A stretch of DNA of 29,676 bases from a virus (taxonomy: Duplodnaviria; Caudoviricetes): positions 1 through 29,676 of IMG/VR virus record IMGVR_UViG_3300025803_000069, one strand, 5' to 3'. How positions within the stretch are numbered: the first letter of the stretch is position 1; the number at the start of each line of letters is the position of its first letter. A program made the position numbers and the translations under genes. Shown piece after piece: positions 6,470-29,231 of this stretch. A model generated the notes under the pieces. That model was given only the letters and a program-made list of their open reading frames with translations. It ran no database searches and was not told where the DNA came from.

Positions 6470-6919
6470 TCAAGCCACAATCATCCAGCAAGTTACTGTG
6501 GTGTGACTTGTTCCAGTCACGGTAAACTGTGCTGCGTTCACGGTGTTGCCGTCTGAGTTTGTTGCAGTTGTTGTACCGATTGCATTCTTCATACTAACTG
6601 CGGCACTTTCTGTAACGTTGTCTCCAACGATTACTGCCAAAATTTTCGACGCATTGCCGCCAACGACCAATTTTTCATCGTTGGCTAGTGCTGTGGTAAA
6701 TCGTCCACAAACTAACTTGATGCCTGCTGTTGCGTTTCCATCACTGTTGCTTGCTTGAAATCCAGTCAAAGAGCCGGGGTATGTACCTCCGAAACCTTTC
6801 AACCATTCAGTATCGCCCGTAGGTGAACCTGCATACAAGTCGAGTGCAAAGTCTTCTGTGTAAACTGCACTTGAACTCGATGTGTAAACTATTCCGCTTG
6901 TTCCTGTTGTTGCTGTCAT
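6470..6919 (-). CDS. Putative capsid-associated (decoration/fibre) protein
   Basis: About 149 aa, Thr/Gly/Ser/Ala-rich, directly downstream of the major capsid gene; SD GGAG(ATGA) upstream of ATG 6919. Confidence 0.6.
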   Translation of the reverse strand: MTATTGTSGIVYTSSSSAVYTEDFALDLYAGSPTGDTEWLKGFGGTYPGSLTGFQASNSDGNATAGIKLVCGRFTTALANDEKLVVGGNASKILAVIVGDNVTESAAVSMKNAIGTTTATNSDGNTVNAAQFTVTGTSHTTVTCWMIVA

Positions 6920-6956
6920 ATTTTTCATCTCCTGTGTGTGTTATCTCCATCAAACC

Positions 6957-9551: not shown

Positions 9552-9573
9552 TGTAGTTGTTACATCCGTCATT

Positions 9574-9581: not shown

Positions 9582-12500
9582 TCAGATATGGTAAACAGCC
9601 TTATCTTCTGTAAGTTCTAACTTACTATCAACTTCCTCGACGTCTTTCGATTCTTCCTCTTTATCTTTCCTGTCACGTTCAATATCACGCACATCGTAGT
9701 CAGGCATGGTTTTCGCATCGTCGGGGTTGGTCGGACCTGTTGGTGATTGTATGGGCGTGCCGTAGTCTATACCGAGTCCTTTGGGTCCTGACATACTCGT
9801 ACCCACTTGACCTACACCGCTTTTCGCCAACAGTCGCTCAAGAAGTTCGACACCCTTCTTCATAACCTTGTTCTTCTCTTTGTCCCACGTCCCAGTGCCA
9901 TGAATTTTCTTAGGTGGGATGAGAGGCTTAGCGTCACCCTTACTTTCGTGAACCTCAGCCTTGTCCTCTCGTTCTTCTATAGAAAAGTCACCCTTGAGCA
10001 TGACGCCAGCAACGGGTGACCAAAACGGTCGTTGGCTTTCAGACAAACGAATCAGATAGTCATTGTCGGCTACGGGTGTGTGTACAGTCCAATACTGACC
10101 ACGTGTGGTCGCCTTGTACAGAACATCACCTGCTTCAAACGATACACGAATGTGACGGTCACTTCTATAGATGTTGAGTGGACTTTGAGTCATGTCGGCT
10201 TTTGCTAACATAGCAAGGCTTTCTGTACTGACCAATGGTTCGCCCTCAGCCTCACCTTCGATGCGTGGTGCGTGAACAGTGTACACCTTTTGATTCTCAG
10301 ATGCTTCACCTTCTGTTACGCTCGTGACATTGACCTTGACGAAGTCACCGACCTCATACTTTTCAGGAGCATTGAACGATGCACCAATGTCCATGTAAAT
10401 GTCATCCTCAATCTTGACTGCACGGTCACCCAAGTCCTCTCCATGAATGATTGGACCTGTACCAAGTCGATACGTGTACGGCGATTCGCCTCTTCGCTCA
10501 AGCACCATGAGTGTAACATCGTTGCCTTTCTGATACATGACCCACTTGGGATGACGTGCTTCGCCTTTCATGTACGTGGACTTTGCATCACGCAACAAGA
10601 TACGGTCGCTCTCGATGTTCTTGATGGCGTCAGCCAGTCCGACATCGTCGGTCAACTTGGTATCGGATGCACTTGGGGCTTCGACACCCTCAACGCTTTG
10701 CAACGCACCACGCAACAACTTGATGCGGTCTTGAATCGGCATATCATGAACCTCCTTGCCATCAAACTCAATGACCTCAAAGATGTACAATCCACTCTCA
10801 CGTCGTATAACGTCAACCAAAAAATCCTTGTCAGATACCTGCTTGAACGCTTTCTTCTCTTCATCTGTAAGTGAACCCTTACTTTCGACGTCGTCATCCT
10901 TTTTTGTAACGAACATTCGCTCGCCCTCAGGATAATCGCTGACAACCCAGTCGCCTGTGAACCCACGCAGGTGTTCAAGGTCGTCGACATCAAAGATACG
11001 GTGCATCGGTTGCAGTGACGGCAAGCCCTCAGGCATATCCTTGCGGATATAATCAGGGTTGGTCAGCGAAGCCAGCAATGCAGGTCCGTCCATCTTCGTC
11101 GATATGTCCAGCAGGTTATCACTCAAAGTCGTTTGGGCTTGGTTTGAACGCGTAGCGTTTGGTTGTCGCTCAACTGAACGGTCATCGTTGTGTGCACCAA
11201 AGTGACCAAGATGTTGTTGAGGCAAGACTCTTCTCACTGAACCTCCCATAGGCGTAGCCAATCGCATTTTCTTTGGCGTCTGTGGTCGAAACTGCATACG
11301 ACCGTCTCTTATATCCATGCGGAATGGAACTTCGTGCATGTGCCCTTTGTGAGAACGCAGTCCGTCTGAGTTGTAAATGGACATGATGGATGTTTCTGTG
11401 TCAGGATGTGAGGCACGACCAATCGGCTTTGACGTGAGTGCAAGCCTTTCTTTGGAGGCTTCGTGCGTTGGGTCGTACTCAACTGAGCCGTCATCAACCA
11501 CAATTCCATGAAGTAAGTTGGTTAATTTGTGCATTTTCTTTTCGTCTATGAGTGGTTTGCCTGTTAATCTATGACTAACATTTTTGCCAGTATAGTGTGC
11601 ATCTAATTGACGTTTATCCTTTTGGTTCGGTATTTGAATTTCCAAACCTCGGTCCGACAACGTTTCAAGCATCCGTGATACTGCCGATGCTGCGACCATT
11701 GTGGGGTTGGTCTTTAGGCTGTTAGCCCCTCTCCTCTTTCTATCAGGATGTGCTCGGACAGTTCCCAACTCAAAGTTACCTTCCCTGTCGTGAGGATAGT
11801 CAAGAAGTCCGTGAAAGTCATCAACTAATGTATCTGAAACTCCCATGGGTAAACTTGCTATGAGGTCTTGCACCGTAGCAATTCGTACAGGCGTACCTTG
11901 CTTACTGGCCTGAGTTACGATTTGTTGAATCATCCTTCGCTGATAGGGTGATGCTTCTTCGCCAAACACACGGGCTGTGGCTTTGTCCACGTTTTCGTTT
12001 GGTCCGATTTCGTGAGCATCATCTGTGTCCATGAAGGCTTTGACTTGGTCTTGTACAGCGTCATGCCTTACATGCGTTTTTTCACGAATCGTTCCCGCTG
12101 ACAATGCTTCTTGTCCGTGAAAATCTTGGTCTTGAGTAGCAAGAATGTCGTTTGCTGTCTTCATGGCCCACGCCATGACGGTGTCAGGCGGTGCCATAGA
12201 AAACAAATCAAAACCCTGTTGCTCAGCCTCAGCAAGCACTTGTTTGGCTACGTTCTCGATTGCATTGATGTGACTTCGTACTTTGCCTTGTAGTGTCCTT
12301 CCCTTATCACTCAAGTATTTCTGATGTCTTCCCTTGACGGAAGAATAATGTTCTCGTTCAATGGCCTCCAAGCGCTCGTGCGCTTCGTCGATTTCGTCTT
12401 CTGATACAGGCATACCACGCGCTTGCTGTTCAATGAGTGTGTTGAGTTCGTCCTCGGCTTGGCTGTATTCCAACATTCTTGGTCTAAACGTATTTACGTG

Positions 12501-14984
12501 TGCATTGACCTTACCCTCAGCCAACATTGCATCTCGTTCAGCGTCCTTAATTTTGTTTTCATGCTCTTGCGAGGCTAAAAACCACGCCATCGATTCGTCA
12601 TTCATACCAAGAACAGCGGGTGGTTTTGGTGGGTTGTTTTTCAGATTGCCAAGAAGCATGCGCTTCTCGTGTGCGTTCTCGCGCAGCGATTGAAGTTGTT
12701 TCAAATCGTTATCATAATTGTCTTGCGTAATTCCCTGCAACATTCCGAGTTCGTCACGGTCCGCAGCCATCTCTGTATCAGGGTGTATGCTGTGAGGATG
12801 ATGAACATCCTCTTGGAACGAAGGGTTGGCAGGTGGGTGTATTGCACCAATCATTCCGGACAACTGATGGTGATGCATAGCGGAGTCTTGGTCACGGCGC
12901 ATCACTCCTGTTTCAGTCGACTTCGGTCCGAATGCGTTGCGTGAACCTATGGTGTTTTCGTACCCATACCCATCAGCAACAGCATTACGCATAGCGCCAC
13001 GCATGCCTTGTTCCGTAGCACCGTGCTTGGATTCCATCAGTTGATTGTAATACTTTGGAGAGGTCGTCGTGTCGTGTCGTGTACTGTTGACCTTGGCACC
13101 CGACAGTAAACTGACGCCAGTGCGCTGAATGTTATGCGGATTCAACTGAGCAGTCAGACCCGTGCTGGGGCTGATTTCAGCAACCTGCTTGGCTTCATAC
13201 AGCCCCTTCTCGGTTTTACGATAACGCTTGACCGCTTCCAGTTCCGATTCAGGCGGACCGAACGGTGCCATCACGTTTTCAACAGCATCGGCAAGGCCAA
13301 TCAGTTCGGGGCGAAACGCGCCTGCGTCACCTACTCCAACTATGTCACCGCCCACACGTGAACGCTCACCAGTCGTCAAAAACGACATAGCGTCTCCCTC
13401 TTCGGGCGAAAAGCGATGCGCTGCATGCATGGTGTTTAGACGAGTTGCGTGCGTCTTACCAAGTCCGCCTCTTCCCAAGAACGGTGTGGAGAAGTGATGG
13501 CTGAGCGATTCTTGCTTACCGCCTATGTACGACTCAGGATGTGCGTTCTCACCTTCGGTAGCAAGAAACGGCTGTGTGAAAAACTGAATAGCGTTTCGCA
13601 ATCGACGACCATTACCTTTCATTTTTGTAGCATCCCTGTGAAAACCTACGAAGTCTTTGACAAGTTCGTCGATGCCCTCCAACGAATCAAGCAAGGCAAT
13701 CGTACGAGGGTCACCTCGGTTGAGTGAATAGTATGGGTCATCGTACCGCATAAGTTTCTGACCTGCACGACCCATGTTCGCCATAGCAAACAAATCGTTG
13801 GGGGTGATTGTTTTTGCATCGCTTGGTACGAGACGACCTTTCTCGACCTTCGCCAAATACTTCAACTTCTCGCCAGTAATCCCTTGGTAAAAGTCTTTCA
13901 GTCGCTGAAATAGTTCTGTACCCTCAAGGTCTTTGTACATCTCAGCGGGATTGATGTCGTCCTGTGGAGGAGTGTAAAGACGACCAAGTCCGGGTTCGCC
14001 TGTGGCATCCACGTCACGTGTGTGGTGTGCGTGAACTGGAGCATAGCGCTGATGAAAGTTTGCTACGAAACGACCCATGGGTACTTCCATACCCAAGTCA
14101 GGTAAGAAAACAGATGCGTTGTCCTTGTTCATCGAACCGTGTTCCATCATATGTTCATAGAATGCAATCTTGTCTTTGGGACTGAGCCATTCTAATCCAA
14201 AGTAGTAATCCAGTTCACCAAGCCCGACAGTGCGGTCCGTTCCTTCGCCCTTTGTGTCAAAATCTTTCCATGTATCTTTAGCATCCGACATGTGCCGTCT
14301 TCGCATGGCTTCGTCAAAATCAGCACCTTCACGACCAAGTAACAGTTCTTCTTGAAATGCTTTCAAACCCGCAGGGCTTGCTTGCCAATTTTCAAAGTTC
14401 ATTTCGTATATTGTATGATTAGACACCCGTTCCTTACCGTACATGGCAGGTGAGTACAGTGCAGTATCTCCGTGATGTCGATAGTGAGCCTCCTCTTTTC
14501 TGTCATGCTCTTGTGCTACACTTTCGACCTTAGGGTCAAGAACATTATCAAGAAAATAACGCTCCAAGACGTTGCTGAACTCAGGATGCGATTCGTCGTC
14601 GTATTCGTCATGGTTACCCCAAAGGGGATTGAAATCAGGACTGTGATAATGGTCTTCAAAAAAGTGCTCGGTTTCTGTACCCTGATGTTCTCGGCTTGGT
14701 GGTCGTATCTGTTGATGAAGCCACTGCGAACCCATGTGCACGATACTGTCGTGTGACTTAATGCGCTCAGCAAAGGGAGCACCGCCTTCAAACGATTCAG
14801 GCATCGTTTTGGGTGCTCTATCCATACCCTCCGATACCCGCATATCTGTTGACGGGTCAAGAACACCGAGAGATGCAACGTCTTCAAAAGTAGGGTCAGG
14901 CTGTTGCGCTAATGGAAAGGGAGACTGAAACGATGGGTCAGCCCCTTCTTGTTCCTCTCCACCACTGGGATTCGGAATCGTCAC
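9582..14984 (-). CDS. 1800-aa head-region protein with a C-terminal degenerate ATP-dependent DNA ligase-like (NTase + OB) domain
   Basis: GTG start after GGCGGTGA. The C-terminal part shows LQPM...WVVSDYPEGERMFV...FLVD...YIFEVIEFDG..HDMPIQDRIKLL...RILLRD..STYMKGEARHPKWVMYQ, then an OB-like beta region. The N-terminal ~1300 aa are unrecognised. Confidence 0.75.
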   Translation of the reverse strand: MTIPNPSGGEEQEGADPSFQSPFPLAQQPDPTFEDVASLGVLDPSTDMRVSEGMDRAPKTMPESFEGGAPFAERIKSHDSIVHMGSQWLHQQIRPPSREHQGTETEHFFEDHYHSPDFNPLWGNHDEYDDESHPEFSNVLERYFLDNVLDPKVESVAQEHDRKEEAHYRHHGDTALYSPAMYGKERVSNHTIYEMNFENWQASPAGLKAFQEELLLGREGADFDEAMRRRHMSDAKDTWKDFDTKGEGTDRTVGLGELDYYFGLEWLSPKDKIAFYEHMMEHGSMNKDNASVFLPDLGMEVPMGRFVANFHQRYAPVHAHHTRDVDATGEPGLGRLYTPPQDDINPAEMYKDLEGTELFQRLKDFYQGITGEKLKYLAKVEKGRLVPSDAKTITPNDLFAMANMGRAGQKLMRYDDPYYSLNRGDPRTIALLDSLEGIDELVKDFVGFHRDATKMKGNGRRLRNAIQFFTQPFLATEGENAHPESYIGGKQESLSHHFSTPFLGRGGLGKTHATRLNTMHAAHRFSPEEGDAMSFLTTGERSRVGGDIVGVGDAGAFRPELIGLADAVENVMAPFGPPESELEAVKRYRKTEKGLYEAKQVAEISPSTGLTAQLNPHNIQRTGVSLLSGAKVNSTRHDTTTSPKYYNQLMESKHGATEQGMRGAMRNAVADGYGYENTIGSRNAFGPKSTETGVMRRDQDSAMHHHQLSGMIGAIHPPANPSFQEDVHHPHSIHPDTEMAADRDELGMLQGITQDNYDNDLKQLQSLRENAHEKRMLLGNLKNNPPKPPAVLGMNDESMAWFLASQEHENKIKDAERDAMLAEGKVNAHVNTFRPRMLEYSQAEDELNTLIEQQARGMPVSEDEIDEAHERLEAIEREHYSSVKGRHQKYLSDKGRTLQGKVRSHINAIENVAKQVLAEAEQQGFDLFSMAPPDTVMAWAMKTANDILATQDQDFHGQEALSAGTIREKTHVRHDAVQDQVKAFMDTDDAHEIGPNENVDKATARVFGEEASPYQRRMIQQIVTQASKQGTPVRIATVQDLIASLPMGVSDTLVDDFHGLLDYPHDREGNFELGTVRAHPDRKRRGANSLKTNPTMVAASAVSRMLETLSDRGLEIQIPNQKDKRQLDAHYTGKNVSHRLTGKPLIDEKKMHKLTNLLHGIVVDDGSVEYDPTHEASKERLALTSKPIGRASHPDTETSIMSIYNSDGLRSHKGHMHEVPFRMDIRDGRMQFRPQTPKKMRLATPMGGSVRRVLPQQHLGHFGAHNDDRSVERQPNATRSNQAQTTLSDNLLDISTKMDGPALLASLTNPDYIRKDMPEGLPSLQPMHRIFDVDDLEHLRGFTGDWVVSDYPEGERMFVTKKDDDVESKGSLTDEEKKAFKQVSDKDFLVDVIRRESGLYIFEVIEFDGKEVHDMPIQDRIKLLRGALQSVEGVEAPSASDTKLTDDVGLADAIKNIESDRILLRDAKSTYMKGEARHPKWVMYQKGNDVTLMVLERRGESPYTYRLGTGPIIHGEDLGDRAVKIEDDIYMDIGASFNAPEKYEVGDFVKVNVTSVTEGEASENQKVYTVHAPRIEGEAEGEPLVSTESLAMLAKADMTQSPLNIYRSDRHIRVSFEAGDVLYKATTRGQYWTVHTPVADNDYLIRLSESQRPFWSPVAGVMLKGDFSIEEREDKAEVHESKGDAKPLIPPKKIHGTGTWDKEKNKVMKKGVELLERLLAKSGVGQVGTSMSGPKGLGIDYGTPIQSPTGPTNPDDAKTMPDYDVRDIERDRKDKEEESKDVEEVDSKLELTEDKAVYHI

Positions 14985-16151: not shown

Positions 16152-17885
16152 TCAATTTCGCCGTATGTTGTTCATGGCTTGACTAAGTGGTGAGCCTTGT
16201 GGTCCTCGCTGTTGAACACTTGAAAACGGTGCGCCTGAACCCATGCTTGTTCGATTCTGTGGACTGGCAGGTCCACGTGGAGTACGCATTCCCATCCCCT
16301 CTCCTCCGGGCTGTGAAGCAGGTCCTTGACCTGCTCTCAAGCCTGCGCTTGCTTGACCTGCAAGTGCACCTGCCAACTGTGGTGGCATGTTACGACTTGG
16401 CAAGCCACCGGGCTGTGCCATAGGTTGGGGACCTCCGGGCATGCCTCCCATCTGAGGCTGACCACCCATACCTTGTTCCATAGGCTTGTAAATGAATCGA
16501 ATGTCTCGACCGCCCTCCTCGATAAGTTCAGGCTTGAATCCGAGTTGTGCCATACGTTGTGCGATGTTGACCTCCATCTCGTCTCGTCGGAGCCGAGTGA
16601 CTTCGTCTTCTTCTTCGTTTGGATAAAGTGTTAACTTCCAATCTGTAATGTCCATCTCTTCCATCAGTCGTGGGAACAAGTGGTCAGTGTACACTTTGTG
16701 ACCGAACTCGACAGCACGGTTGGTGACAAGTATTTGCAAACCTTCGTTGTTGAGTCCGCCTGATTTACCTGTGTCCATCATAAACACGTTTGATACACCG
16801 TAAAACGCTGCGATACGGGTTCTCATTTCGTCACGTACGGCAATGTATTGCATTTCTTCAAGCGTGTCCATGAACTTGACCCAGTTGACACCACCACGTC
16901 CACTTTGGCTTTCGATACCAATCTTTGGAATGTAGTGCGGGTCACGCTCAAGTTTCTCATCAACACCCTTCCAAAACGACTTCATCGATTCAAGGTTGTC
17001 CGTGGTGATTGAAATCAAGCCACGTGGAACACGACGCTTGCTGTATGCTGTGTACATGTAGTTGTCCATCGCTGTAAGCGTCATAGCCTGACGCCAAAGT
17101 GTCGATACTGGTGACTTACCGTACAACTTCGACGGATTGTATTTACTCACGTGAATAACTTCACCCTTGAGATAGTATTGCGTCTTCCCTGCACCACCTG
17201 TGTTGACGTGGTGCACGTCTTCCAGTTCGTGGTTGCATATCTCACAGTTGTTATCGGTTTCGCTGTAGCCACGCACTTGATTGCGATGCAATGGACAGAC
17301 TTTGTATCGTCCGCCACGCACGCCTCGCTTGTCAGCGACAATACGCATGAAGATAGGGTCGCCGCGCAAAATCTCTTTGACACGGTAAAAAGCAACCTCG
17401 TTGGTTTCAGGGTCAACGTAGTACTCTTTGACAAGAATCAAAAACGCATCGTCCATGATGTTGAGGTCGTATTCAATCTCGCGTAACACATCCATGAAGT
17501 TCTGTTCCATTGAGTTGCGTTGCTCAACAAGCCATCGACCATAAACGGTTTCGTTTGGGTCAGGGCTACGAACGTCGCCGCCACAATCAACGCATGTGTC
17601 AACGTCATGCTGGTATTCTTTTTCACATTCGATGCACTTCATGTGGAACTTCTTGTCCCAGTAATACCCACGTCGAAATATTTCTTGTTGAAGCGTTGAA
17701 AGCACCGTTCGCAGAATTAAGTTCTCAGATGCAACTGAATACAATGCAGGTATGGTAATACCTTGAACAATAACTGGCTCTTGAATACCCGTTGTGTACA
17801 ACGGCATCTGAGGCTCAGGTGTACGTCGTCGTCGGAACCGGTCGGCCAATCGACCAAGAACACCCTTAACACGTTCTTCCGCCAT
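16152..17885 (-). CDS. Portal protein
   Basis: 577 aa downstream of TerL. HK97-type portal segments DLNIMDDAFLILVK, EVIHVSKYNPSKLYGKSPV, VPRGLISI and EMQYIAVRDEMRTRIAAFYGVSNVFM. Two Cys-rich inserts and a G/P/Q/M-rich tail. Confidence 0.9.
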   Translation of the reverse strand: MAEERVKGVLGRLADRFRRRRTPEPQMPLYTTGIQEPVIVQGITIPALYSVASENLILRTVLSTLQQEIFRRGYYWDKKFHMKCIECEKEYQHDVDTCVDCGGDVRSPDPNETVYGRWLVEQRNSMEQNFMDVLREIEYDLNIMDDAFLILVKEYYVDPETNEVAFYRVKEILRGDPIFMRIVADKRGVRGGRYKVCPLHRNQVRGYSETDNNCEICNHELEDVHHVNTGGAGKTQYYLKGEVIHVSKYNPSKLYGKSPVSTLWRQAMTLTAMDNYMYTAYSKRRVPRGLISITTDNLESMKSFWKGVDEKLERDPHYIPKIGIESQSGRGGVNWVKFMDTLEEMQYIAVRDEMRTRIAAFYGVSNVFMMDTGKSGGLNNEGLQILVTNRAVEFGHKVYTDHLFPRLMEEMDITDWKLTLYPNEEEDEVTRLRRDEMEVNIAQRMAQLGFKPELIEEGGRDIRFIYKPMEQGMGGQPQMGGMPGGPQPMAQPGGLPSRNMPPQLAGALAGQASAGLRAGQGPASQPGGEGMGMRTPRGPASPQNRTSMGSGAPFSSVQQRGPQGSPLSQAMNNIRRN

Positions 17886-19195
17886 TACAAATCACTTCCC
17901 CAAGAACGAATGGTGTCAGCATCGACACCCCATGCATCGAGTTTCTTTTGCACAGCATCAGCGTCGTCCTTCCAGTTTTCAAACATAACCAACATACGAT
18001 ACTGCTCCTTTTTCATCGTGTCATTCTCTTCAAGGAACCGCAATGCGGCCTTTGCTTGAGTCGACTTCAACTGCAAGTGCGGAAGCACTCCGTTAAGAAC
18101 TTTCTTCAAATCATCTCGTGAATGGAAATTCAACCGATGCGTTGTGCGCTTGCTGTTCTTTGACATTTTTTCGTCGAGTGACAGTGTGCCGCAACCAAGT
18201 GTTTTCTGCAATCGCTCACAGTGAATGCGCCCTCTATCCCCAGTGGCTACTGCCGATGCACGAACTTCGCCACGCTTGGTGATAAAGATTGAGCCATCAG
18301 CGTCCATGAACCCCGCAGCATACGCCCACGGGTCTTTGATGACAAGTCCATCACAGGAAAGCAGAACGTATTCGCCACGCCGTGGTGCCTTAACAATGTC
18401 CATCTCTTCGCCAAACATCGAGAGTAATTTGCTCATGCGTGTGGCTGAAAGTCGATTCACGCCTTTCTCAATCAAGTTGGCAGTGATGTCACGAGCACCC
18501 ATGTGCCCTTTATCTTGCAATTCTTTCTTTGCCAATTCAAGCCAATTTTTCTGTTCTTTGCTGAGTGTGTCGACTTGATGAAGTCCGCTTCGCCACATCT
18601 TGCGTGCATCCTGTCGCTGTTGCATAGCATTAACCCAAGCGCTTCGTTCTTCGTCACCCCAAACATCCTCGTAGTCATCAAGCATCTTGAGGGCTTCGTC
18701 GGCTGCTTCCCACATATGACAAGCCCGTAGCAATGTTGATTCTCTTGAGTTACCGAACGTACGTAGCGATTTGAGGTTGCGGTCACTCAAACCGAGATTG
18801 CGAATGGTGTCGGCGTATTCGATTGCCCACGGAATAGAAGATATGGTTTGCTCCACTTCTTGAGCCTTGAGTGCACGTACACTTTTGATAGCACCATCAA
18901 TATCGAATTTCATGTCTTTCATCTTGCGTCGAGCACGCTTGAGGTCTTTGACAACTTCGTCAGCGCTCTTACCGAGATATGCATCAAACCACGAGTCGCC
19001 GTTTTCAGGGAACACATGTGTTTCAATCTGTAGGATAGGTTGCTGTGGTGCAGCCTCCTTTGCGATTTTGACGGCTTTCATCATATCGTCACGAAGTGAA
19101 GGGTGGCCCAAAAGTGAAGATGCAATCATTGTTGACTGCTCATGACCCATCTCAAGATGGATGTCTGACTCTCCTACAACAAGTGTCGGCCACAT
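17885..19195 (-). CDS. Coiled-coil + winged-helix + LAGLIDADG endonuclease-domain protein
   Basis: ATG 19195 after GGAGATGA (track start 19246). C-terminal WAYAAGFMDADGSIFI...LQKTLGCGTL...LKKVLNGVLPHLQLKSTQA is a single-motif LAGLIDADG domain, preceded by a wHTH-like segment. TAATG overlap with the portal gene. Confidence 0.8.
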   Translation of the reverse strand: MWPTLVVGESDIHLEMGHEQSTMIASSLLGHPSLRDDMMKAVKIAKEAAPQQPILQIETHVFPENGDSWFDAYLGKSADEVVKDLKRARRKMKDMKFDIDGAIKSVRALKAQEVEQTISSIPWAIEYADTIRNLGLSDRNLKSLRTFGNSRESTLLRACHMWEAADEALKMLDDYEDVWGDEERSAWVNAMQQRQDARKMWRSGLHQVDTLSKEQKNWLELAKKELQDKGHMGARDITANLIEKGVNRLSATRMSKLLSMFGEEMDIVKAPRRGEYVLLSCDGLVIKDPWAYAAGFMDADGSIFITKRGEVRASAVATGDRGRIHCERLQKTLGCGTLSLDEKMSKNSKRTTHRLNFHSRDDLKKVLNGVLPHLQLKSTQAKAALRFLEENDTMKKEQYRMLVMFENWKDDADAVQKKLDAWGVDADTIRSWGSDL

Positions 19196-19230
19196 CTCAA
19201 TCATCTCCGTATGGGTCGTAGTCAAACGGG

Positions 19231-20730
19231 TCAAGCAACAAACCAATCATCTCCTGTCATACGTGCAGCACCCTTGCCGGGTGAATCAAGGAACCACTTG
19301 TCGAATCCGGGTAGGTCGTCGTCGAGTAGGATAACACTGCCACGGAACTCCTTTGTTGCCCAGTTCGCCAGCGCAATTGCCATAGCCAAGTCATCGTGCG
19401 AACCGACCGATTCCAACTTACCACTCTTGGTCATTCCAAAGCGACTGAGTTGCTTTTCAAGTTCACGTGTGTACTCCTTACTACGCTCGTTGCCCCAAGG
19501 CGTTTTGATTTTGCCTTGCTCAAAAGCCATCAGCAGCGACATGAACATACTTTCCTTGCGTTGTCTTGTGGTCATAAATGTTTTGATGGGGATGTCATCT
19601 CGCATATCTTGCAATTCGGCTGCAAACATGCGCTGGAAATTGTTACCTTCAAGTTCAATTAGGTCAGGTTGGAACCGATTGTTGATGAGTAGGATGTTCT
19701 TTTTCTGTGCTGCGCCACTCAATCCCTTTTGATTAATGACGTGAACCATTTGCTTCTCCTCAGAATCGGGAAGCATACGCAAGATAACCATCGCTGTGTA
19801 GTCAGCGTTGCTATCACTGGCAATCGCAGGGTCCCAGCCGACAAAGTGCTGACCGAATACACCCGCTGCATTGCCTTCTTCGTCAAACTCTTGTTCGGCG
19901 TGGTCAAGCAACACGAGGCTTTCGTCGCGTGCCTTTTCCAACAGGCTGTTGGGGAACATACTGGAATTGTCGTGGATTGGTTCGCACAGATACTCACGAG
20001 CGAATTTGATAGCAGGCATCGACTGCTCACGCATTCGGAGTGCGTCGAGAGGCCAACGTCCCGGCCATAGTGGTTCACCATTCTCTAAGATAGCGGGATA
20101 GGTTTCGACTTGGAACGTGTCCTTCTGTTCAAGTTCAGCGTACAGGTCGTTGTACGAAAACGGTGTACCGACCATCATCATTCGACCTGTGTGGTGAAGA
20201 ACAGGGAGAAGAACGGTATAGAACCAGTCGGCTGCACGTTGAAGTTCAGACGCTGTGGTTCCCCACAGGATGTCATCGCACACGACCACGTCCGGGTGGA
20301 AACCACGAGTAGCACCACCGACGGACTTCGCCATGATACGGCTACCGTTGGTGAACTCAAAGTAGGATTTTGCCCACGGCTTACCTGAGGGCTTGAGTGG
20401 TTTGAGAATGTCAGCCATGTCGATGTTGCTACGGATGAATCGCATGTGCTCAAGCGTCTGTTCAAGCGAGTGGCTGAACACCATGATGTGCGTGTTCGGA
20501 TTGAACGCTGCAATCCATAGAGCATAGGACATGAAGAATACAGATTTACCGTGGTCACGGCTCGCTTTGACGCAGTAGTATCGGTGACCGTTCAAACCTT
20601 GGTCCCACGCTTCGTGATGGTCGGCGTAGTCAAAGCCAAGAATCTCGGTGAAAAAGAACTTGAACGACTTCTTCGACATCTCGATGTCGATTTCGTCAAC
20701 GAGTGCCTTGACACCCTCAGTGTCACTCAT
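19231..20730 (-). CDS. terL: Terminase large subunit
   Basis: Walker A ASRDHGKS, Walker B VVVCDD, coupling motif VGTP, nuclease motifs FVGWDPA..SNADYTA and HDDLAMAIALA. ATG 20730 after GGAGGCG (track start 20784). Confidence 0.93.
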   Translation of the reverse strand: MSDTEGVKALVDEIDIEMSKKSFKFFFTEILGFDYADHHEAWDQGLNGHRYYCVKASRDHGKSVFFMSYALWIAAFNPNTHIMVFSHSLEQTLEHMRFIRSNIDMADILKPLKPSGKPWAKSYFEFTNGSRIMAKSVGGATRGFHPDVVVCDDILWGTTASELQRAADWFYTVLLPVLHHTGRMMMVGTPFSYNDLYAELEQKDTFQVETYPAILENGEPLWPGRWPLDALRMREQSMPAIKFAREYLCEPIHDNSSMFPNSLLEKARDESLVLLDHAEQEFDEEGNAAGVFGQHFVGWDPAIASDSNADYTAMVILRMLPDSEEKQMVHVINQKGLSGAAQKKNILLINNRFQPDLIELEGNNFQRMFAAELQDMRDDIPIKTFMTTRQRKESMFMSLLMAFEQGKIKTPWGNERSKEYTRELEKQLSRFGMTKSGKLESVGSHDDLAMAIALANWATKEFRGSVILLDDDLPGFDKWFLDSPGKGAARMTGDDWFVA

Positions 20731-21661
20731 TCTCCGCCTCCCGCTGCATAAACTCATTGTACAACTCTTGTTCTCTGTTTCCAAGTCGTCCCGTTCGTGG
20801 TGATGGCGGCTGCGACGGCTCTCCGCCTCCGCCCTGCTGAGATTCTTCGCTCACTTCCGCTTGTGCCACTTCCACGGAATTTGATTGATTATCACGGTTT
20901 TCAGGAGCGTTTAATTGCTGGTTGACTGTATTGTCATTTTGGTCAAAGCCTGCCGCTGGCTGAATTTGACCTTGAGGCGCCTGTGCCTGCTGTTGCGGTG
21001 CTGCTACACCAAGACCAGTTAGCAAATCAAGTGCTGGTTGAAGTCGCTCAGGGTCTATGCCTTGGACTGCTTGTACAGCAGGGTCGTCATCTCGTCGACG
21101 ACCTCGACGCTTTTCTTGTTGGAATTTTGCTCGCCCAAGTGATGCTAACTCACGACCAAGTTGCTCAGCACCGGAACGTGTCGCCTGATTTGCTTCACTT
21201 GCTTGTTGTAAGCGTGCTTGTTCGGCCTCAAACCGTCGACGGTTGATGTTCATTGGGTTCATACGAGTTGCAAGACTTGGATTTTGTTGGCGGTATTCAA
21301 AGTCAGCCTGTGCTCTTTGTTTGGCATAGTCATCCTTTACTTGCTGTTCCATGTCAGCACGTGCTTGTCGCCCACGTGAAGTTGCCAAATTAGCAAGTCC
21401 TCGACCGGCTGCGCCACCTTGCATAGCACCAACTTGGAGATTTGATAGGAATCCGCCAAGACTTCGTGACTCACCTGCAAGTCCTCCCGCTAAACCTGCT
21501 AACGTACCTGTTGCGCCAAGCGCTCGACTCCGTTTTGTGCGACCACGTGCTCTATCGCCTCCCCCACGTCGTCCGCCAAAGCCGACGTTGTAGTACATCT
21601 GAGGCTTACCGTCAGGGCCAATCTGAATTTGAGGTGAAGCCTTCACGAGAATCTTGCTCAT
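20723..21661 (-). CDS. Gly-zipper / Gln-rich hypothetical protein, candidate ejection or pilot protein
   Basis: ATG 21661 (MSKILVKAS) in a TGATG overlap, SD GGAGGG. GATGTLAGLAGGLAG...GAMQGGAAGRGLANLA followed by a coiled coil and a disordered tail. Confidence 0.65.
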   Translation of the reverse strand: MSKILVKASPQIQIGPDGKPQMYYNVGFGGRRGGGDRARGRTKRSRALGATGTLAGLAGGLAGESRSLGGFLSNLQVGAMQGGAAGRGLANLATSRGRQARADMEQQVKDDYAKQRAQADFEYRQQNPSLATRMNPMNINRRRFEAEQARLQQASEANQATRSGAEQLGRELASLGRAKFQQEKRRGRRRDDDPAVQAVQGIDPERLQPALDLLTGLGVAAPQQQAQAPQGQIQPAAGFDQNDNTVNQQLNAPENRDNQSNSVEVAQAEVSEESQQGGGGEPSQPPSPRTGRLGNREQELYNEFMQREAENE

Positions 21662-24773: not shown

Positions 24774-25474
24774 CAGTCCACCTCCCCTTCATCAATCACA
24801 TCAAGAACGTCAGAATCACCACGAAGGAGTGCTTCGCGCACTCGCATCCATGTTTCGGGACTCTCTTTTGCCATTTCAACTTTCAGGATGTTGATGGTAT
24901 TGGTCACAGTCTTTTCCTCAGGCTGTGCCCATTGCGATTGGAATGCCATGAGGTCTTTGATGGACTCACGAATCTCTTTGTTGAGGCGTACCATGTCACC
25001 GATAGCGTTGTCATCATGAATACTAACCTCATCCATGTAGCGAGTCAACTTGTCGTTCAACTTTTCTGTGTTGCTTCGGATAACACCGAGTTCTTCACCA
25101 ACCTTAATCGACACGATTGCTGTTGAAGAACGTCGTACAAGTGGCTGGAAGTGCTCTTTCATGTGCCGATACACGGCATCTTCTGAGCAATCGACCTCGT
25201 TTGCTATCTCTTCTGTGGTCATACCCTCGTCAAAGTAGGCAACTTCGTACAACCCACGGTTGTCTGAGGTGCATATTGGACACCGATAGTTGGAACCAGT
25301 GACGTTTTCGCCTGCGTGGTTTCGCATATGTCGCTCAGCCGTGTTGGTTCTCCACCCTTTATCACGGTCCAATACACGCATATCGACATTTCCTGAGGCT
25401 ATTTGTTCCTCAAGTTCGTCACGGTTGTCGTCTTGGCAAAAAGCACATGACAGTTTTGTCTGACGACCCCCCAT
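24773..25474 (-). CDS. Probable terminase small subunit (tandem Zn-finger/HTH repeats + coiled coil)
   Basis: Two repeats of CxxC..DNR...(HTH)...RHMxxH, then a helical oligomerisation-like region. First gene of the coupled run leading to TerL. Confidence 0.55.
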   Translation of the reverse strand: MGGRQTKLSCAFCQDDNRDELEEQIASGNVDMRVLDRDKGWRTNTAERHMRNHAGENVTGSNYRCPICTSDNRGLYEVAYFDEGMTTEEIANEVDCSEDAVYRHMKEHFQPLVRRSSTAIVSIKVGEELGVIRSNTEKLNDKLTRYMDEVSIHDDNAIGDMVRLNKEIRESIKDLMAFQSQWAQPEEKTVTNTINILKVEMAKESPETWMRVREALLRGDSDVLDVIDEGEVD

Positions 25475-25496
25475 GCGTTAGGGCAGGTAACAGCCA

Positions 25497-25535: not shown

Positions 25536-25814
25536 ATGGGTCGGATTCGTCCAGCGGGTGTACGTGTTTTGGGCGTGCCTATGAACAAAGATACTGCTGT
25601 TTCCCTTGCAAAAGCAGCACGGGACGTCGTTTTAAGGCGTAATGTACCCCCTGAAATCAAGGAAAAACGGCTTAAAATGTGCCAAAAGTGCCCTCATTGG
25701 ACAGGTTCAAGGTGCAAAAAATGCGGTTGTCAGATGAAAATTAAGGCAAGTTTGTCCTCTTCTGAGTGCCCGATTGGACAATGGGGACGTTATACCGAAG
25801 AAATGCGGGAATAA
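25536..25814 (+). CDS. Small Cys-rich basic metal-binding protein (DUF6171-like)
   Basis: RLKMCQKCPH...RCKKCGC.MKIKASL...ECPIGQW is a pattern common in small phage proteins. It is the only credible plus-strand gene. Confidence 0.7.
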   Translation: MGRIRPAGVRVLGVPMNKDTAVSLAKAARDVVLRRNVPPEIKEKRLKMCQKCPHWTGSRCKKCGCQMKIKASLSSSECPIGQWGRYTEEMRE

Positions 25815-26041
25815 ATGGCACTTGCAAGAAGAACTCCAGTCATCAATGACCCCATGAGCCATGCAATCGTGTCGCTTCCGAGTGAATCGTTCTTCAAAAT
25901 AAGCAACAATGTGACGGTTACAATGATGGTGAGTATCTGAACCATGACCATATCAACAATAACAGACTTTTTTGGAGCGAAAATGTCACTCGTTGTCATA
26001 GCAAACCCTTGTGAAAAGGGCATTCGTTGTCCTCTATCCAT
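25790..26041 (-). CDS. Small two-TM membrane protein
   Basis: ATG 26041 after GGAGGT. Hydrophobic stretches VIVDMVMVQILTIIVTVTLLLIL and IAWLMGSLMTGVLLASAIY. Confidence 0.7.
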   Translation of the reverse strand: MDRGQRMPFSQGFAMTTSDIFAPKKSVIVDMVMVQILTIIVTVTLLLILKNDSLGSDTIAWLMGSLMTGVLLASAIYSRISSV

Positions 26042-26042
26042 C

Positions 26043-26666
26043 TTATCGACCTCCAATCATGTTACGGGTGAATGAGCCGATGCCTCCGCCGACCTTTTGC
26101 ATGAATCCTTCATCAGCCATGGCAGCATGAAGTGCGCTTCCCATCATTGATTGCTGAGAAACAGCAAGAATTTGTTGCTGTTCCATCTGTGCCTTGTCAA
26201 TATCCTGTTGACTTTTGCCCACCATAGCATTGAATTGACTTGTAATGTTCTCAGCGCTCATCGTTTGTAGGTTGGTTGGCAAAGATTGTGGGTCCATCTT
26301 CAATGTACCGTCGTCTTCATTAAGGGTAAACGATGCATTTCGTAGGATTTCAAGCAGTGAATAGGTAACGATGTCGTTCAACATCTGTATGAGCATAGGC
26401 ATCTTCTGACTGACAACAAACCTGTCAACCGGTGACTGACTTTTAAGCATAGCAAGTAGTATTTCAGCCTCACTTGGGGGTGTCATAGGTTGTTGCATAT
26501 ACTGTGGGTTCATACCTGCACCCTGCATGAATGCCCCTGCTGCTGGATTGGACGCCCAACCACCTTGTTGTTGGTATGCATTCTGTTGTGCAAATCCGTT
26601 TTGCTGTGGTGCGCCCAAGTTGAGTGCCCCGTTTTGCTGGTCGTTTCCTCCTCCAAATAATCCCAT
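26043..26666 (-). CDS. Gln/Met-rich hypothetical protein
   Basis: 207 aa, SD GGTGA. Low-complexity N-terminus, helical core, amphipathic Gly-rich C-terminus. Confidence 0.7.
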   Translation of the reverse strand: MGLFGGGNDQQNGALNLGAPQQNGFAQQNAYQQQGGWASNPAAGAFMQGAGMNPQYMQQPMTPPSEAEILLAMLKSQSPVDRFVVSQKMPMLIQMLNDIVTYSLLEILRNASFTLNEDDGTLKMDPQSLPTNLQTMSAENITSQFNAMVGKSQQDIDKAQMEQQQILAVSQQSMMGSALHAAMADEGFMQKVGGGIGSFTRNMIGGR

Positions 26667-26674
26667 GTGTTCAC

Positions 26675-27649
26675 CTACTGTTGTGGAAGCGTATATTGTT
26701 GCTGAGGTGCGTTCTGTTCTTGAACCTGTTGCCGTTCAGCCTGTTCGATACCCACTGAACCGATAGCATCACTAATCCCTACGTCTGTTGGAATCATGTT
26801 AAGTTCATCGTGGAAGTACCGAAGGTCAAAATACACGGCTGTAATGTCATTCATACCGTTGTTTGGATTTTTGTAATGTGAAATAGTAATACCTGCGTGT
26901 CGCTTAGAATCTTTTTCCAACTCGACAAAGAACGGTTCGTACTTGAGTAAAAATTCAGGTGTGTTGTTTTTCTTTTTCAAGACTGAAATGGGTACTGCGA
27001 CGGTACTCACACCTTTTCTGACCATCTCACGCATACCGCCTTTCGTTTTGAGTCGTTCCTTTTCGTTCTCACCTTCCCACTTTGTCAACAAGTGGTACAA
27101 ATGCAAATGCTCAGGACAGTACGTTCCTCGCATGAGCCGTCCGTCAGTGACGTTTTCACGCGCAATGAAGGCAGTAGGCTCCCCAGTAACTGGATTTTGC
27201 CAATACAAATCCCACAAACTTTCACCAGTGGACTCGTCTGTGATTTTTGCATAGAGGTTGTCGTACTGAATTAATTTTTGACAGTCACAGCCGTCGACAA
27301 CACAAGAGCCTGCACTCTTGTTGTAACGGTACTTGAAGCCAGCCCACCGCAGTGGATTGAACATTGAGCGCTTGGATGGCTTGAGTAGTGCTCGTGCTTG
27401 CTTGATGTCTTTCTTGCGTGCCTTGCGAGGGTCAGGATGTCGACTTGGATAAAAATTGACTTTCGGAACTTCGATGTTGTTGCGTGCACCTGCTGCACGC
27501 ATGGATTGCTGTGCACCTTGCATCTCAATCAACTGCTCGTGTGAAGGGTTCCCTTGGTGGCTCAGTGCCTTCATTTCAGCAGCATCCATTGCTTGAAGAT
27601 TACCGTTCATAGCACCTCCTCGAAACCTGCCATTGAAATCAAAAACCAC
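26675..27649 (-). CDS. Hypothetical protein with a possible Zn site
   Basis: 324 aa, GTG start after GGGGGAG. CVVDGCDC...GTYCPEH are candidate metal ligands. Confidence 0.7.
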   Translation of the reverse strand: MVFDFNGRFRGGAMNGNLQAMDAAEMKALSHQGNPSHEQLIEMQGAQQSMRAAGARNNIEVPKVNFYPSRHPDPRKARKKDIKQARALLKPSKRSMFNPLRWAGFKYRYNKSAGSCVVDGCDCQKLIQYDNLYAKITDESTGESLWDLYWQNPVTGEPTAFIARENVTDGRLMRGTYCPEHLHLYHLLTKWEGENEKERLKTKGGMREMVRKGVSTVAVPISVLKKKNNTPEFLLKYEPFFVELEKDSKRHAGITISHYKNPNNGMNDITAVYFDLRYFHDELNMIPTDVGISDAIGSVGIEQAERQQVQEQNAPQQQYTLPQQ

Positions 27650-27680
27650 TACATCTCCCCCTATCTGTCGGTTAGCATAC

Positions 27681-27690
27681 TATTTCAAAA
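27681..27690 (-). promoter_or_regulatory. Possible internal TATA-like box
   Basis: TTTTGAAATA in the gap between the GTPase stop and the next gene. Confidence 0.3.
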
Positions 27691-27697
27691 GCCTTCC

Positions 27698-28414
27698 CTA
27701 CGTTGAAAGCAAATCAATCATGGTGTTTTCCACGTTCCAACCGATACGCGTTGCCATCATCGAACGCATGGTTGGTATACCTGCTTTCTGCAATCGCACA
27801 AGGTCTTCACGGAACGGGTCGAAGATTCTGTGCTCACCTAACCGCTGCTGTTGCCAAAGCACGTTTGCTTGGTCATCCCACCATTGGTCGGCTTTGTTTG
27901 CAACAAGAAGAATCGACTTGGGGCAGTACTTTTTACCACGAAAACGAGCACGAAGACTTCTGTATCGGTACTGACGATGAATTAGTGCGTCACACAGATA
28001 CTTGAACCCAGCCACTGCTTGAAGTGCAGGTTCTCCACCCAACTGTACACGATGGTCAAAAACGAAGATAACGGCCTCCACGTTTCGATTGACCATGTCA
28101 TCAATCCAAAGGTTCCAAAATCGTTCTTCGCCACCCATATCGGAAGAATGAACGACACGTCGCTCGCCTTTCCAGCGCACTCGCTTGCGAGTAGCACGTG
28201 GTAACAAGTACTTGCCAAGAATTTTTGTGTGCGAGGTTCTTTCATCAATGGGTATATCTTCCATTTCACCGGGTGTTGTGAGATACTTATCGAGTGTTGT
28301 CTTACCGACCATCGTTGGACCGTAAATGCCAACACGTCGAGGAACCCAATAGTGGTACAACTCTCGTGCGAACACCAATCCGCCAACCATCGCCGAGCCT
28401 GCTGCCGCACTCAA
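27698..28414 (-). CDS. Small P-loop GTPase (Ras superfamily; Arf/Rab/Roc-like)
   Basis: G1 GPTMVGKTT, G2 Thr (ERT), G3 DMGGEERF.NLW, VEAVIFVFD strand, G4 LVANKAD, G5-like MAT. TTG start at 28414 overlaps the upstream stop after GGGTGG (track start 28486). Confidence 0.85.
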   Translation of the reverse strand: MSAAAGSAMVGGLVFARELYHYWVPRRVGIYGPTMVGKTTLDKYLTTPGEMEDIPIDERTSHTKILGKYLLPRATRKRVRWKGERRVVHSSDMGGEERFWNLWIDDMVNRNVEAVIFVFDHRVQLGGEPALQAVAGFKYLCDALIHRQYRYRSLRARFRGKKYCPKSILLVANKADQWWDDQANVLWQQQRLGEHRIFDPFREDLVRLQKAGIPTMRSMMATRIGWNVENTMIDLLST

Positions 28415-28659
28415 TCGAACCAACCACCCAGCCAGTTCGACAACTTTTCGCCAAACCACTGTGCAGTCGAATCCCAAAGACTCCAATCGCTGTGAAACTC
28501 GACAGCACTAACGACCATCGCTGATAGTACTGAAAAGAAAACGGCTTTGACCCAGCCCCATGCTCGTTCGTATGCTGTGTCGACCGTGTTGGCGATGTGC
28601 ATGGCACGAAGGGTAGCCTCGGTGCTGTCATCGGTAGGCGTCTTGAAAATACGACCCAT
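28411..28659 (-). CDS. Small Trp-rich membrane protein
   Basis: 82 aa, SD GAGGTGA. TM segment AWGWVKAVFFSVLSAMVVSAV and amphipathic tail WFGEKLSNWLGGWFD. Confidence 0.7.
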   Translation of the reverse strand: MGRIFKTPTDDSTEATLRAMHIANTVDTAYERAWGWVKAVFFSVLSAMVVSAVEFHSDWSLWDSTAQWFGEKLSNWLGGWFD

Positions 28660-28670
28660 AGGGGGTCACC

Positions 28671-29231
28671 TCACTTTTTGTTTTTGAACGTACCGTCAGG
28701 GTTGCGCTCACGCTTTGCCTTTTCCTTTGTCTCTTCGCCAAACGTCACGCCAAGTCCCAGTGGTTCGTCGACTGATGCTTCGTGATTTGGTTCAGGATTG
28801 AAATCAGCAGTAGTTTCTTCAAAGACTTTACCTTGATAGAGTGGTGGCATCTTGCCGGGATTTTGCTCCATCCAACGTAGTTCAGCCTCAAGTTGGGCTT
28901 CTTGCATACGCAACTCCATGTCTTGTCGACGTCGTTCAAACGTTTCCTCCATACCACGGTAGCGTATACGTCGCTCTCGTTCCATGGTTGCACTGCGTGC
29001 TTTTTCATCCATGCCCTGTTGGAAGAACATCTTGAAGATGTAGTATGCGATACCTTGCACGAAGAATGCACCCATTGCATAGGTGAAACCGTTGAGTGAC
29101 GATGTTTCCAAATCAATCCACATTTCAGCATCAAAAATACCGACAGCCAAGCCGACGGTTGCTGATTGCATTAGGATAAGTCCGAGTAGTCTGATTTCAC
29201 TTTGGTCAACTGCTGTATTTTGAGAACTCAT
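28671..29231 (-). CDS. Two-TM membrane protein with a cytoplasmic coiled coil
   Basis: 186 aa. LLGLILMQSATVGLAVGIF and FTYAMGAFFVQGIAYYIF, then an E/R/M-rich coiled coil and a C-terminal RERNPDGTF. Confidence 0.75.
   Translation of the reverse strand: MSSQNTAVDQSEIRLLGLILMQSATVGLAVGIFDAEMWIDLETSSLNGFTYAMGAFFVQGIAYYIFKMFFQQGMDEKARSATMERERRIRYRGMEETFERRRQDMELRMQEAQLEAELRWMEQNPGKMPPLYQGKVFEETTADFNPEPNHEASVDEPLGLGVTFGEETKEKAKRERNPDGTFKNKK

Follow-up and report, generated by a model that had tools for sequence, protein, structure and literature searches.

A conserved viral six-gene block with a divergent Arf-like small GTPase: a tentative candidate for a virion-release complex

In this work, we analyzed a block of six genes at positions 25790-29231 of a stretch of viral DNA, which comprises positions 1 to 29,676 of the IMG/VR record IMGVR_UViG_3300025803_000069 and is called here, at its whole length, the window. 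The block is a conserved six-gene operon, tightly packed and held together across deep divergence. Judging by its sequence motifs and predicted fold, the product of the third gene is a genuine but very divergent small GTPase of the Ras superfamily, and the rank orders of a profile search and of a structural comparison lean towards the Arf/Sar1/SRbeta group as its nearest relatives. We propose, with a probability of about 0.4, that the cassette is a GTP-switched membrane complex for virion release.

The six open reading frames (ORFs), numbered here as genes 1 to 6 in the order of transcription, were all found on the minus strand at the places given for them in a first-pass annotation made from the sequence alone (Table 1). 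They are real genes, more than chance ORFs, and their dN/dS ratios against three close relatives (L002, L052 and L003) lie between 0.013 and 0.10, the small genes for 82 and 88 aa included (0.013-0.052 for gene 1, 0.065-0.10 for gene 2 and 0.031-0.089 for gene 6). The annotation had put the block just upstream of the packaging genes, which is loosely said: four ORFs (of 233, 370, 667 and 332 aa) and about 5 kb lie between the block and TerL.

A scan of IMG/VR with the GTPase gave 53 loci, one of which (L001) is identical to the window. When these loci were searched with the six proteins by tblastn, genes 3-6 were found in 53/53 and genes 1-2 in 51/53, with constant order and strand; in the two loci without genes 1-2 (L043 and L053), the contig ends at or inside the GTPase gene. 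The median intergenic gaps in 51 loci are 6, 8, 8, 8 and -1 nt, and in the window the stop codon of gene 2 and the TTG start of the GTPase gene overlap by 4 nt (TTGA), the very overlap that had been noted at first sight. As a separate observation, one locus (L039) bears an insertion of about 1 kb (6726 to 7783) between the GTPase gene and gene 4, where all other loci have a few-base gap or a small overlap.

Nine distant loci (four viral ones obtained with P0128 and five in bins of prokaryote genomes) encode GTPases that are 36-62% identical to that of the window, or 52-55% identical to P0128. Profile hidden Markov models (HMMs) revealed genes 1 and 4 flanking the GTPase gene in 9/9 of these loci, gene 2 in 4/9, and genes 5 and 6 in 3/9 each. 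In L057, a 72-aa ORF with a transmembrane (TM) segment and a 246-aa Gln-rich ORF stand at the places of genes 2 and 5, and the HMMs miss both. The genes thus do co-occur in related genomes, as the module idea of the first-pass annotation implied, each of the six in 51-53 of the 53 loci and a core of genes 1, 3 and 4 in every distant locus. As evidence for a functional unit, the nine distant loci carry more weight than the synteny of close relatives.

The start of the GTPase gene at the TTG (28414) is that of most homologues and gives 238 aa; an alternative ATG at 28390, where the ESM Atlas record begins, would give 230 aa. The motifs proved to be as first described: G1 reads GPTMVGKT, switch II reads DMGGEERFWNLW, G4 reads NKAD, and Glu occupies the position of the catalytic Gln. 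In an alignment of 17 homologues (62-78% identical), GxxxxGKTTL, TTPGEME, D-x-G/A-G, NKAD and MAT are invariant or nearly so. Among 132 full-length family members, the P-loop GxxxxGK(S/T) is present in 131, DxGG, DxAG or DxPG in 129, and NKxD in 129, while the GG doublet of the Arf/G-alpha type occurs in 101 (the window reads DMGG). The G2 Thr may be T46/47, T60 or T75.

The residue that follows DxGG is Glu in 93 of the 132 members, Asp in 17, Gln in 15, His in 3, Asn in 1 and Ala in 1, with two members missed by the pattern; in the window, Glu follows DMGG. The distant representatives carry Gln or His at this position in 7 of the 10 cases with a readable motif, and distant members also have a G5 motif of the SA type. 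By these alignments, Glu at the catalytic position is a trait of the window's clade, not of the whole family. The predominance of Gln and His among the distant representatives suggests that the Arf/Sar-type catalytic residue is ancestral and that an acidic residue was substituted for it in the window's clade.

The family is narrow: just 86 of 1.84 billion representative proteins matched its profile at E<=0.001, mostly fragments with about 10 of full length, and no ordinary cellular GTPase was among these 86. Fused forms of the GTPase were absent at E<=0.001 from 7992 longer candidates, which is weak evidence, and tblastn against the GenBank phages of the INPHARED collection gave no match.

Searches with the window protein or its close relatives revealed little similarity to known GTPases. 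In the PDB, phmmer found only Rab33B (E 0.44-0.7), and a profile of 17 close homologues matched no GTPase; NCBIfam gave a sub-threshold match to TIGR00231 (small_GTP; E 0.0076, 16 bits vs. a cut-off of 42.5). The profile was then widened by adding distant members (A2, 27 sequences). The best PDB match of A2 was 8oun_A (E 1.9e-9), aligned over profile positions 13-123, which begin in the N-terminal extension; it was followed by 8oum_A, Arl8A/B, Arl10, Rab33B, Arl1, Arl5, Arf1, Arl3, SRbeta and G-alpha. The entries 8OUN/8OUM represent GerdArfR1, an Asgard Arf-related GTPase whose binding to membranes in yeast is described as dependent on its N-terminal amphipathic helix (bioRxiv 10.1101/2024.02.28.582541). 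RecA concatemers among the A2 matches were discounted, being repeated matches to the P-loop only. When the 27 members of A2 were run singly against Pfam, 13 matched Roc (best 3.3e-4), 6 MMR_HSR1, 5 Arf (best 5.2e-9), 3 Ras and 2 SRPRB (5.9e-6); the Arf and SRPRB matches were confined to divergent members, and the window protein passes neither PF00025 nor PF09439.

A structure predicted with AlphaFold2 (AF2) on A2 reached a predicted local distance difference test score (pLDDT) of 88.0 and a predicted template-modelling score (pTM) of 0.84. The model comprises a helix (residues 3-23) and the strands and helices of a six-stranded G domain, in which switch I is long (47-74) and further helices come after NKAD; a basic insert, YRYRSLRARFRGKKY, is helical (154-162) and lies between helix 3 and strand 5. 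Foldseek against the PDB gave at least 500 matches at E<=0.001, and among the 50 matches listed, all were small-GTPase entries, with template-modelling scores of 0.43-0.54 on query length. VIA-align, which is independent of Foldseek, compared the model with 48,161 representatives and placed on top Arf6 (Z 17.8, root-mean-square deviation 5.6, 173 residues aligned, and Z 17.6, 2.5 A, 162 aligned), Sar1 (Z 17.3, 2.8 A, 159) and SRbeta (Z 16.9, 2.7 A, 166). Lower scores were obtained for an Asgard Rag-like protein (Z 16.1), G-alpha (Z 15.4), Rab28 as the best Rab (Z 15.1) and the mimivirus Rab (Z 14.9). Scores less than one Z unit apart count as ties, and the ranking is therefore a lean towards Arf/Sar/SRbeta, not proof. 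The look-alikes in the ESM Atlas, taken as a lead only, were viral clusters auto-named Ras or GTPase, followed by bacterial clusters with Arf.

The N-terminal extension had been likened, as a hydrophobic one, to those of Arf, Sar1 and SRbeta. A helix ahead of the G domain is indeed predicted (pLDDT 54-85), but it is moderately amphipathic and no TM segment: the hydropathy of the N-terminus reaches 1.19 at most (Kyte-Doolittle, 19 residues at a time, cut-off 1.6), so that it is not a classical TM. The first half of the extension consists of small and hydrophobic residues, the second is aromatic and basic, with flanking Arg/Lys.

Of the earlier label "Arf/Rab-like", the Arf part is borne out and the Rab part is weaker, since the DxGG doublet, the best profile matches and the best structural matches all point to Arf/Sar/SRbeta. 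"Arf-like" holds at the level of "works like, nearest to"; membership of the Arf family proper is not established because the window protein neither passes the curated Pfam model nor has the catalytic Gln/His. With Arf6, Arl8, Sar1, SRbeta and GerdArfR1, it shares the P-loop, DxGG and NKxD and, as predicted, the Ras-like G domain and an N-terminal helix before strand 1. It differs from them in that the identity in structural alignments is about 16-19%, Glu rather than Gln/His follows DxGG, switch I is about 15-20 residues longer, a basic insert precedes strand 5, extra helices follow NKAD, and G5 reads MAT instead of SAx. In addition, it is virus-encoded and has different partners.

The annotation had named a recent origin from the host as a possible objection. 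The family profile was run on a sample of 121 incomplete genomes of the order to which a Candidatus Poseidoniales single-cell genome belongs. A real match was obtained in 1/121, on a virus-sized contig of 106 kb in this single-cell genome (L059, one of the five genome-bin loci); the other 120 sampled genomes gave no real match. Since this is the only real match in the 121 sampled genomes and it lies on a virus-sized contig, we conclude that neither the GTPase nor the cassette is a recent host-derived fragment. Four marginal matches (E 0.003-0.008) were rejected as relatives, for each is limited to 32-36 residues at the P-loop of a protein of about 550 aa.

The same contig bears on the identity of the virus. 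Chaperonins and a DNA ligase inside the structural module are magrovirus traits as described by Philosof et al. (PMC5434244). The distant locus L057 has a Cpn60_TCP1 chaperonin gene (E 1.7e-140) immediately before gene 1. In the window, an 1800-aa ORF between the portal and prohead protease genes has as its sole match a weak ATP-dependent DNA ligase domain (residues 1353-1481, E 2e-4, below the cut-off), and it may be the counterpart of the "ligase within structural module" described for magroviruses (PMC5434244). On the strength of the Poseidoniales contig, the L057 chaperonin and the weak ligase domain, the window would represent a magrovirus-type tailed virus of Marine Group II archaea, which are abundant in the ocean. 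The other four genome-bin loci come from bins labelled Maricaulis, Parvibaculum, Flavobacteriales and Methanobacteriota, and at least the three bacterial labels (L058, L060 and L062) probably reflect misbinned virus contigs.

As for expression, 19 DNA runs contain at least half of the sampled words of the stretch, 13 of them possibly being its source, and one metatranscriptome (X20) contains 13% of these words. Its contig of 1671 nt covers positions 25995-27665, from the beginning of gene 6 through the whole of genes 5 and 4, and differs at 139 places (about 92% identical), and another of 314 nt covers 25164-25477, in the downstream gene for 233 aa; the lack of cover over genes 1-3 is uninformative. 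This gives a weak hint that a related strain transcribes this part of the cassette.

The partners of the GTPase are without recognizable relatives. None of the six proteins matched Pfam at E<=0.1, save two weak sub-threshold matches to gene 6, or PHROGs at E<=0.01; for genes 1 and 5, profile searches found no PDB relatives either, Pfam gave nothing, and gene 1 has no PHROG. Gene 1 had been described as 2-TM plus coiled coil. One clear TM (residues 13-34) is predicted, but the second, an aromatic hydrophobic stretch at about 49-70, stays below the threshold; after this predicted hairpin come a predicted coiled coil rich in Arg/Glu, the conserved motif P(L/M)xLG and a basic tail. Gene 2 is a Trp-rich TM protein, as had been thought, with a conserved N-terminal FKTPxDDxxExTLRxMH, one predicted TM (35-55) and a Trp-rich juxtamembrane tail. 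By hydropathy, gene 6 has the two predicted TM helices ascribed to it. Gene 5 starts with a Gln/Asn/Gly-rich, likely disordered N-terminus bearing invariant LNL(G/S) and PPSE, followed by a helical domain.

Gene 4 encodes an orphan soluble protein with a conserved basic motif, VNFYPSRHPDPRKARKKDIKQA, and, in this clade, a CPEHLHLYH motif. Once distant homologues are added to the alignment, invariance in the putative metal site is confined to C116, G120 and C178-P179, and the histidines of CPEHLHLYH are lost in L057 (CPQALQLFK). Of the cysteines and histidines in the earlier name "Cys/His protein", just C116 and C178 are invariant. The protein collection holds 797 homologues, none named and none with a Pfam family. 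The AF2 model is middling (pLDDT 72.7, pTM 0.53); Foldseek gave no match at E<=0.001 (best 0.96), and nothing came from Pfam on 17 members, from the PDB profile search or from the ESM Atlas. A connexin-helix match with the best VIA-align score (Z 5.3) is at noise level, and rows with a winged-helix-like C-terminal part (Z 3.4-3.7) are untrustworthy.

The annotation had cast the neighbours as GTPase-activating proteins (GAPs), guanine nucleotide exchange factors (GEFs) or effectors. This found no support: gene 4 has no sequence or fold relative, and since the partners in general lack recognizable relatives, no neighbour can be called a GAP, a GEF or a known effector. The labels GAP, GEF and zinc finger were dropped for gene 4, in which no ArfGAP-type finger was seen, though it is not thereby excluded.

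One side observation concerns three of the cassette proteins together. A loose hydrophobic-x-L-G/S motif recurs in their likely disordered ends, as (A/T)LNLG in 53/53 homologues of gene 5, P(L/M)xLG in 51/51 of gene 1 and (L/M)(M/V)ALGQQGN in 37/53 of gene 4. It could be a shared docking motif; the likeness may also be due to chance.

How might such a cassette work? It is the gene content and the position, and these only, that suggest a role in lysis timing, vesicle release or membrane-anchored assembly. We propose that the GTPase would bind GTP and that its N-terminal helix and basic insert would carry it to the membrane in a nucleotide-dependent manner, as in Arf and Sar1. At the membrane, it would meet the products of genes 1, 2 and 6 and recruit or regulate those of genes 4 and 5. 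The output would be a breach or deformation of the host cytoplasmic membrane late in infection, timing or driving the release of virions.

In favor of release, three neighbours of the GTPase (genes 1, 2 and 6) have predicted TM helices. The lysis cassettes of lambdoid phages, composed of small membrane proteins, often lie directly ahead of the packaging/head genes in the same orientation. With such holin-based cassettes, the block shares the small proteins with 1-2 TMs and the location ahead of packaging/head genes in the same orientation; it differs in that no endolysin or holin-family match was found, that it includes a GTPase and two large soluble orphans, and that its conservation far exceeds the usual level of holins. 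A small 2-TM topology is not by itself diagnostic of a holin. The ORFs of the window that were scanned (Pfam on 28, PHROGs on 21) gave no match to a lysin or holin family, and for these ORFs the initial statement that the window has no endolysin-like gene holds. There is a precedent for an archaeal small GTPase driving membrane budding, namely ArvA of Haloferax volcanii as described in PMC10927574, and a 2024 review words the egress of head-tailed archaeal viruses as "still completely uncharacterized" (PMC10791045).

Several points weigh against the release proposal. A part for a GTPase in lysis is not known for any tailed virus, and our literature searches found none. Lysis genes usually evolve fast, and the GTPase gene is the most conserved within 12 kb (median identity 74.5% in 52 loci vs. 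40-63% for its neighbours), so that a core intracellular role fits at least as well. IMG/VR contigs bearing the GTPase reach 90-110 kb; the window is 29.7 kb of a genome of probably about 90-110 kb, and lysis genes may therefore lie elsewhere. The three membrane proteins have no match to a holin or other family in Pfam, PHROGs or NCBIfam, and the window GTPase matches no Pfam family at E<=0.1 and no PHROG. Since Glu stands at the catalytic position in 93/132 members, the protein may hydrolyze GTP slowly, only with the help of a GAP or not at all; the amphipathic character of the N-terminal helix is no more than moderate (hydrophobic moment muH 0.25 here, 0.22-0.50 in the family). RNA libraries may contain DNA, and a contig is no proof of a single transcript. 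Finally, the downstream genes for 233 and 370 aa are likewise kept in 52/52 loci; the synteny of close relatives extends beyond the cassette, and co-occurrence there is therefore weak evidence of functional linkage.

This last point leads to the possibility that the six genes are neighbours only by group synteny, the GTPase serving, for example, translation, assembly or nucleotide sensing by itself or with partners encoded elsewhere, and the membrane proteins having another task. All close relatives being syntenic beyond the cassette would agree with it, as would the recovery of genes 2, 5 and 6 by HMM in just 3-4 of the nine distant loci. Against it speak genes 1 and 4, which flank the GTPase gene in all nine, the gaps of a few nucleotides with the start/stop overlap, and the L057 ORFs of the right size and composition at the places of genes 2 and 5. 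We regard this explanation as rather unlikely.

The high conservation of the GTPase relative to its neighbours also fits the main rival, that the cassette remodels or organizes the host membrane for use inside the cell, for instance to provide a membrane-attached site of replication or assembly; the GTPase would bring viral or host factors to a spot that the small membrane proteins mark. Arf proteins classically act by recruiting coats and effectors, not by breaking membranes. In L057, moreover, the block comes directly after the Cpn60_TCP1 gene, which is assigned to the replicative cluster in the account by Philosof et al. (PMC5434244). At the same time, the block adjoins morphogenetic genes and is co-oriented with them, and nothing in the sequence searches ties gene 4 or gene 5 to replication. 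A need for membrane platforms is not known among tailed viruses. We consider this rival unlikely, if the most serious of those weighed here.

A cassette without a structural or enzymatic signature might also be a device of host takeover or exclusion at the envelope, in which GTPase-controlled membrane proteins block superinfection, cell division or surface structures; small viral membrane proteins are often so used in phages. Exclusion genes are, however, usually accessory and patchy, whereas here the core is kept in 53 loci and in 9/9 distant ones, and six conserved genes are many for exclusion. This makes such a device fairly improbable.

The precedent of ArvA invites one more explanation, namely an ArvA-like vesiculating switch by which the virus induces extracellular vesicles, as decoys or as vehicles of spread, in a host lineage without its own Arv system. 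As described in PMC10927574, ArvA drives vesicle formation in H. volcanii and is paired with a Zn-ribbon protein; the ArvA-ArvB-ArvC system (OapABC) consists, by that description, of an archaeal small GTPase with an N-terminal amphipathic helix, encoded in an operon with a Cys-bearing/Zn protein and acting at the cytoplasmic membrane. A Cys-bearing protein (gene 4) also follows the GTPase in our block, and OapB/ArvB (PF09846) was found in 0/61 sampled, incomplete host-order genomes, with a control positive in Haloferax volcanii and Methanosarcina acetivorans. By contrast, no cassette protein matches DUF2073 (ArvB/OapB) or DUF2072 (ArvC/OapC) in Pfam, and the block has three membrane proteins that the Arv operon lacks. 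The best profile matches of the GTPase in the PDB are ArfR and Arl proteins, and a tailed, non-enveloped virion gains nothing obvious from budding. We therefore rate a vesiculating switch as very unlikely.

Virion release thus remains the reading that we prefer for the cassette. A bolder form of it would see here the missing exit machinery of head-tailed archaeal viruses, a GTP-timed membrane-breaching complex with no counterpart in phage lysis, and in the GTPase an old viral lineage of the Arf type outside Asgard archaea and eukaryotes; we think that this form is unlikely.

Nearly all genes of the window are on the minus strand (Table 1). Three further ORFs around the block and the packaging genes deserve mention. 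A Cys-rich gene for 92 aa on the opposite strand is convergent with gene 6 and shares 25 nt with its 3' end; it matches Pfam DUF6171 (28.4 bits vs. a cut-off of 27) and phrog_13558 (E 3.8e-14) and was found by tblastn in 45/52 loci. Directly downstream of the cassette, the 233-aa protein, present in 52/52 loci with a median identity of 56%, combines CxxC pairs with a helix-turn-helix (HTH_20, E 1.5e-4; matches like sigma-70 region 4 as well, all below cut-offs), and is a candidate regulator or small terminase subunit. A 453-aa ORF between TerL and the portal gene has an HNH-endonuclease-like C-terminal part (phrog_5046, E 7.1e-12).

Table 1. Positions in the window of the six cassette genes, of the recurrent motif and of other features
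Feature	Positions	Strand	Product length and start	Basis
Gene 1	28671-29231	-	186 aa	ORF, hydropathy, alignment
Gene 2	28411-28659	-	82 aa	ORF, hydropathy, alignment
Gene 3 (GTPase)	27698-28414	-	238 aa from TTG 28414; longest ORF 27698-28486, 262 aa	
Gene 4	26675-27649	-	324 aa, GTG start	
Gene 5	26043-26666	-	207 aa	
Gene 6	25790-26056	-	88 aa from TTG; 83 aa from ATG 26041	
Motif site, gene 1 C-terminus	~28671-28850			
Motif site, gene 4 N-terminus	~27515-27649			
Motif site, gene 5 N-terminus	~26550-26666			
Cys-rich gene	25536-25814	+	92 aa	
Downstream gene with helix-turn-helix	24773-25474	-	233 aa	
TerL	19231-20784			PHROGs / Pfam
ORF with HNH-like part	17885-19246	-	453 aa	
Portal	16152-17885			PHROGs / Pfam
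ORF with weak ligase domain	9582-14984	-	1800 aa	
S78 prohead protease	8148-9572			PHROGs / Pfam
HK97-type capsid protein	6957-8132			PHROGs / Pfam

A full-text literature search covering archaeal viruses, Poseidoniales and Caudoviricetes found no description of a GTPase of a tailed archaeal virus or of the six-gene block, and the words "GTPase" and "GTP" are absent from the main texts of the magrovirus papers PMC5434244, PMC10160649 and PMC11706807 and of a survey of archaeal Caudoviricetes (PMC8651126). Among the nearest literature items are two Arf-clade GTPases in a region of an Asgard genome (Atabeya-1) that resembles a mobile genetic element (PMC11529989). Together with the mimivirus Rab (PDB 5xc5), these share with our case the occurrence of eukaryote-like small GTPases on mobile elements or viruses. 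They differ in being near to cellular Arf or Rab, whereas the family described here has no cellular counterpart detectable among 1.84 billion proteins, and the tailed virus that encodes its member in the window has a euryarchaeal host.

According to PMC5434244, magroviruses are probably the dominant component of the archaeal virome in surface ocean waters. The way in which head-tailed archaeal viruses leave their murein-less cells is an acknowledged blank, and the compact six-gene set gives concrete candidates that can be expressed and assayed without a host culture. The natural variation at the catalytic position (Glu, Asp, Gln, His and Ala) is useful for studies of mechanism. A family of Arf-type GTPases that occurs only in viruses of a non-Asgard archaeon would widen the range of membrane-directed small GTPases and would bear on the origin of such switches.

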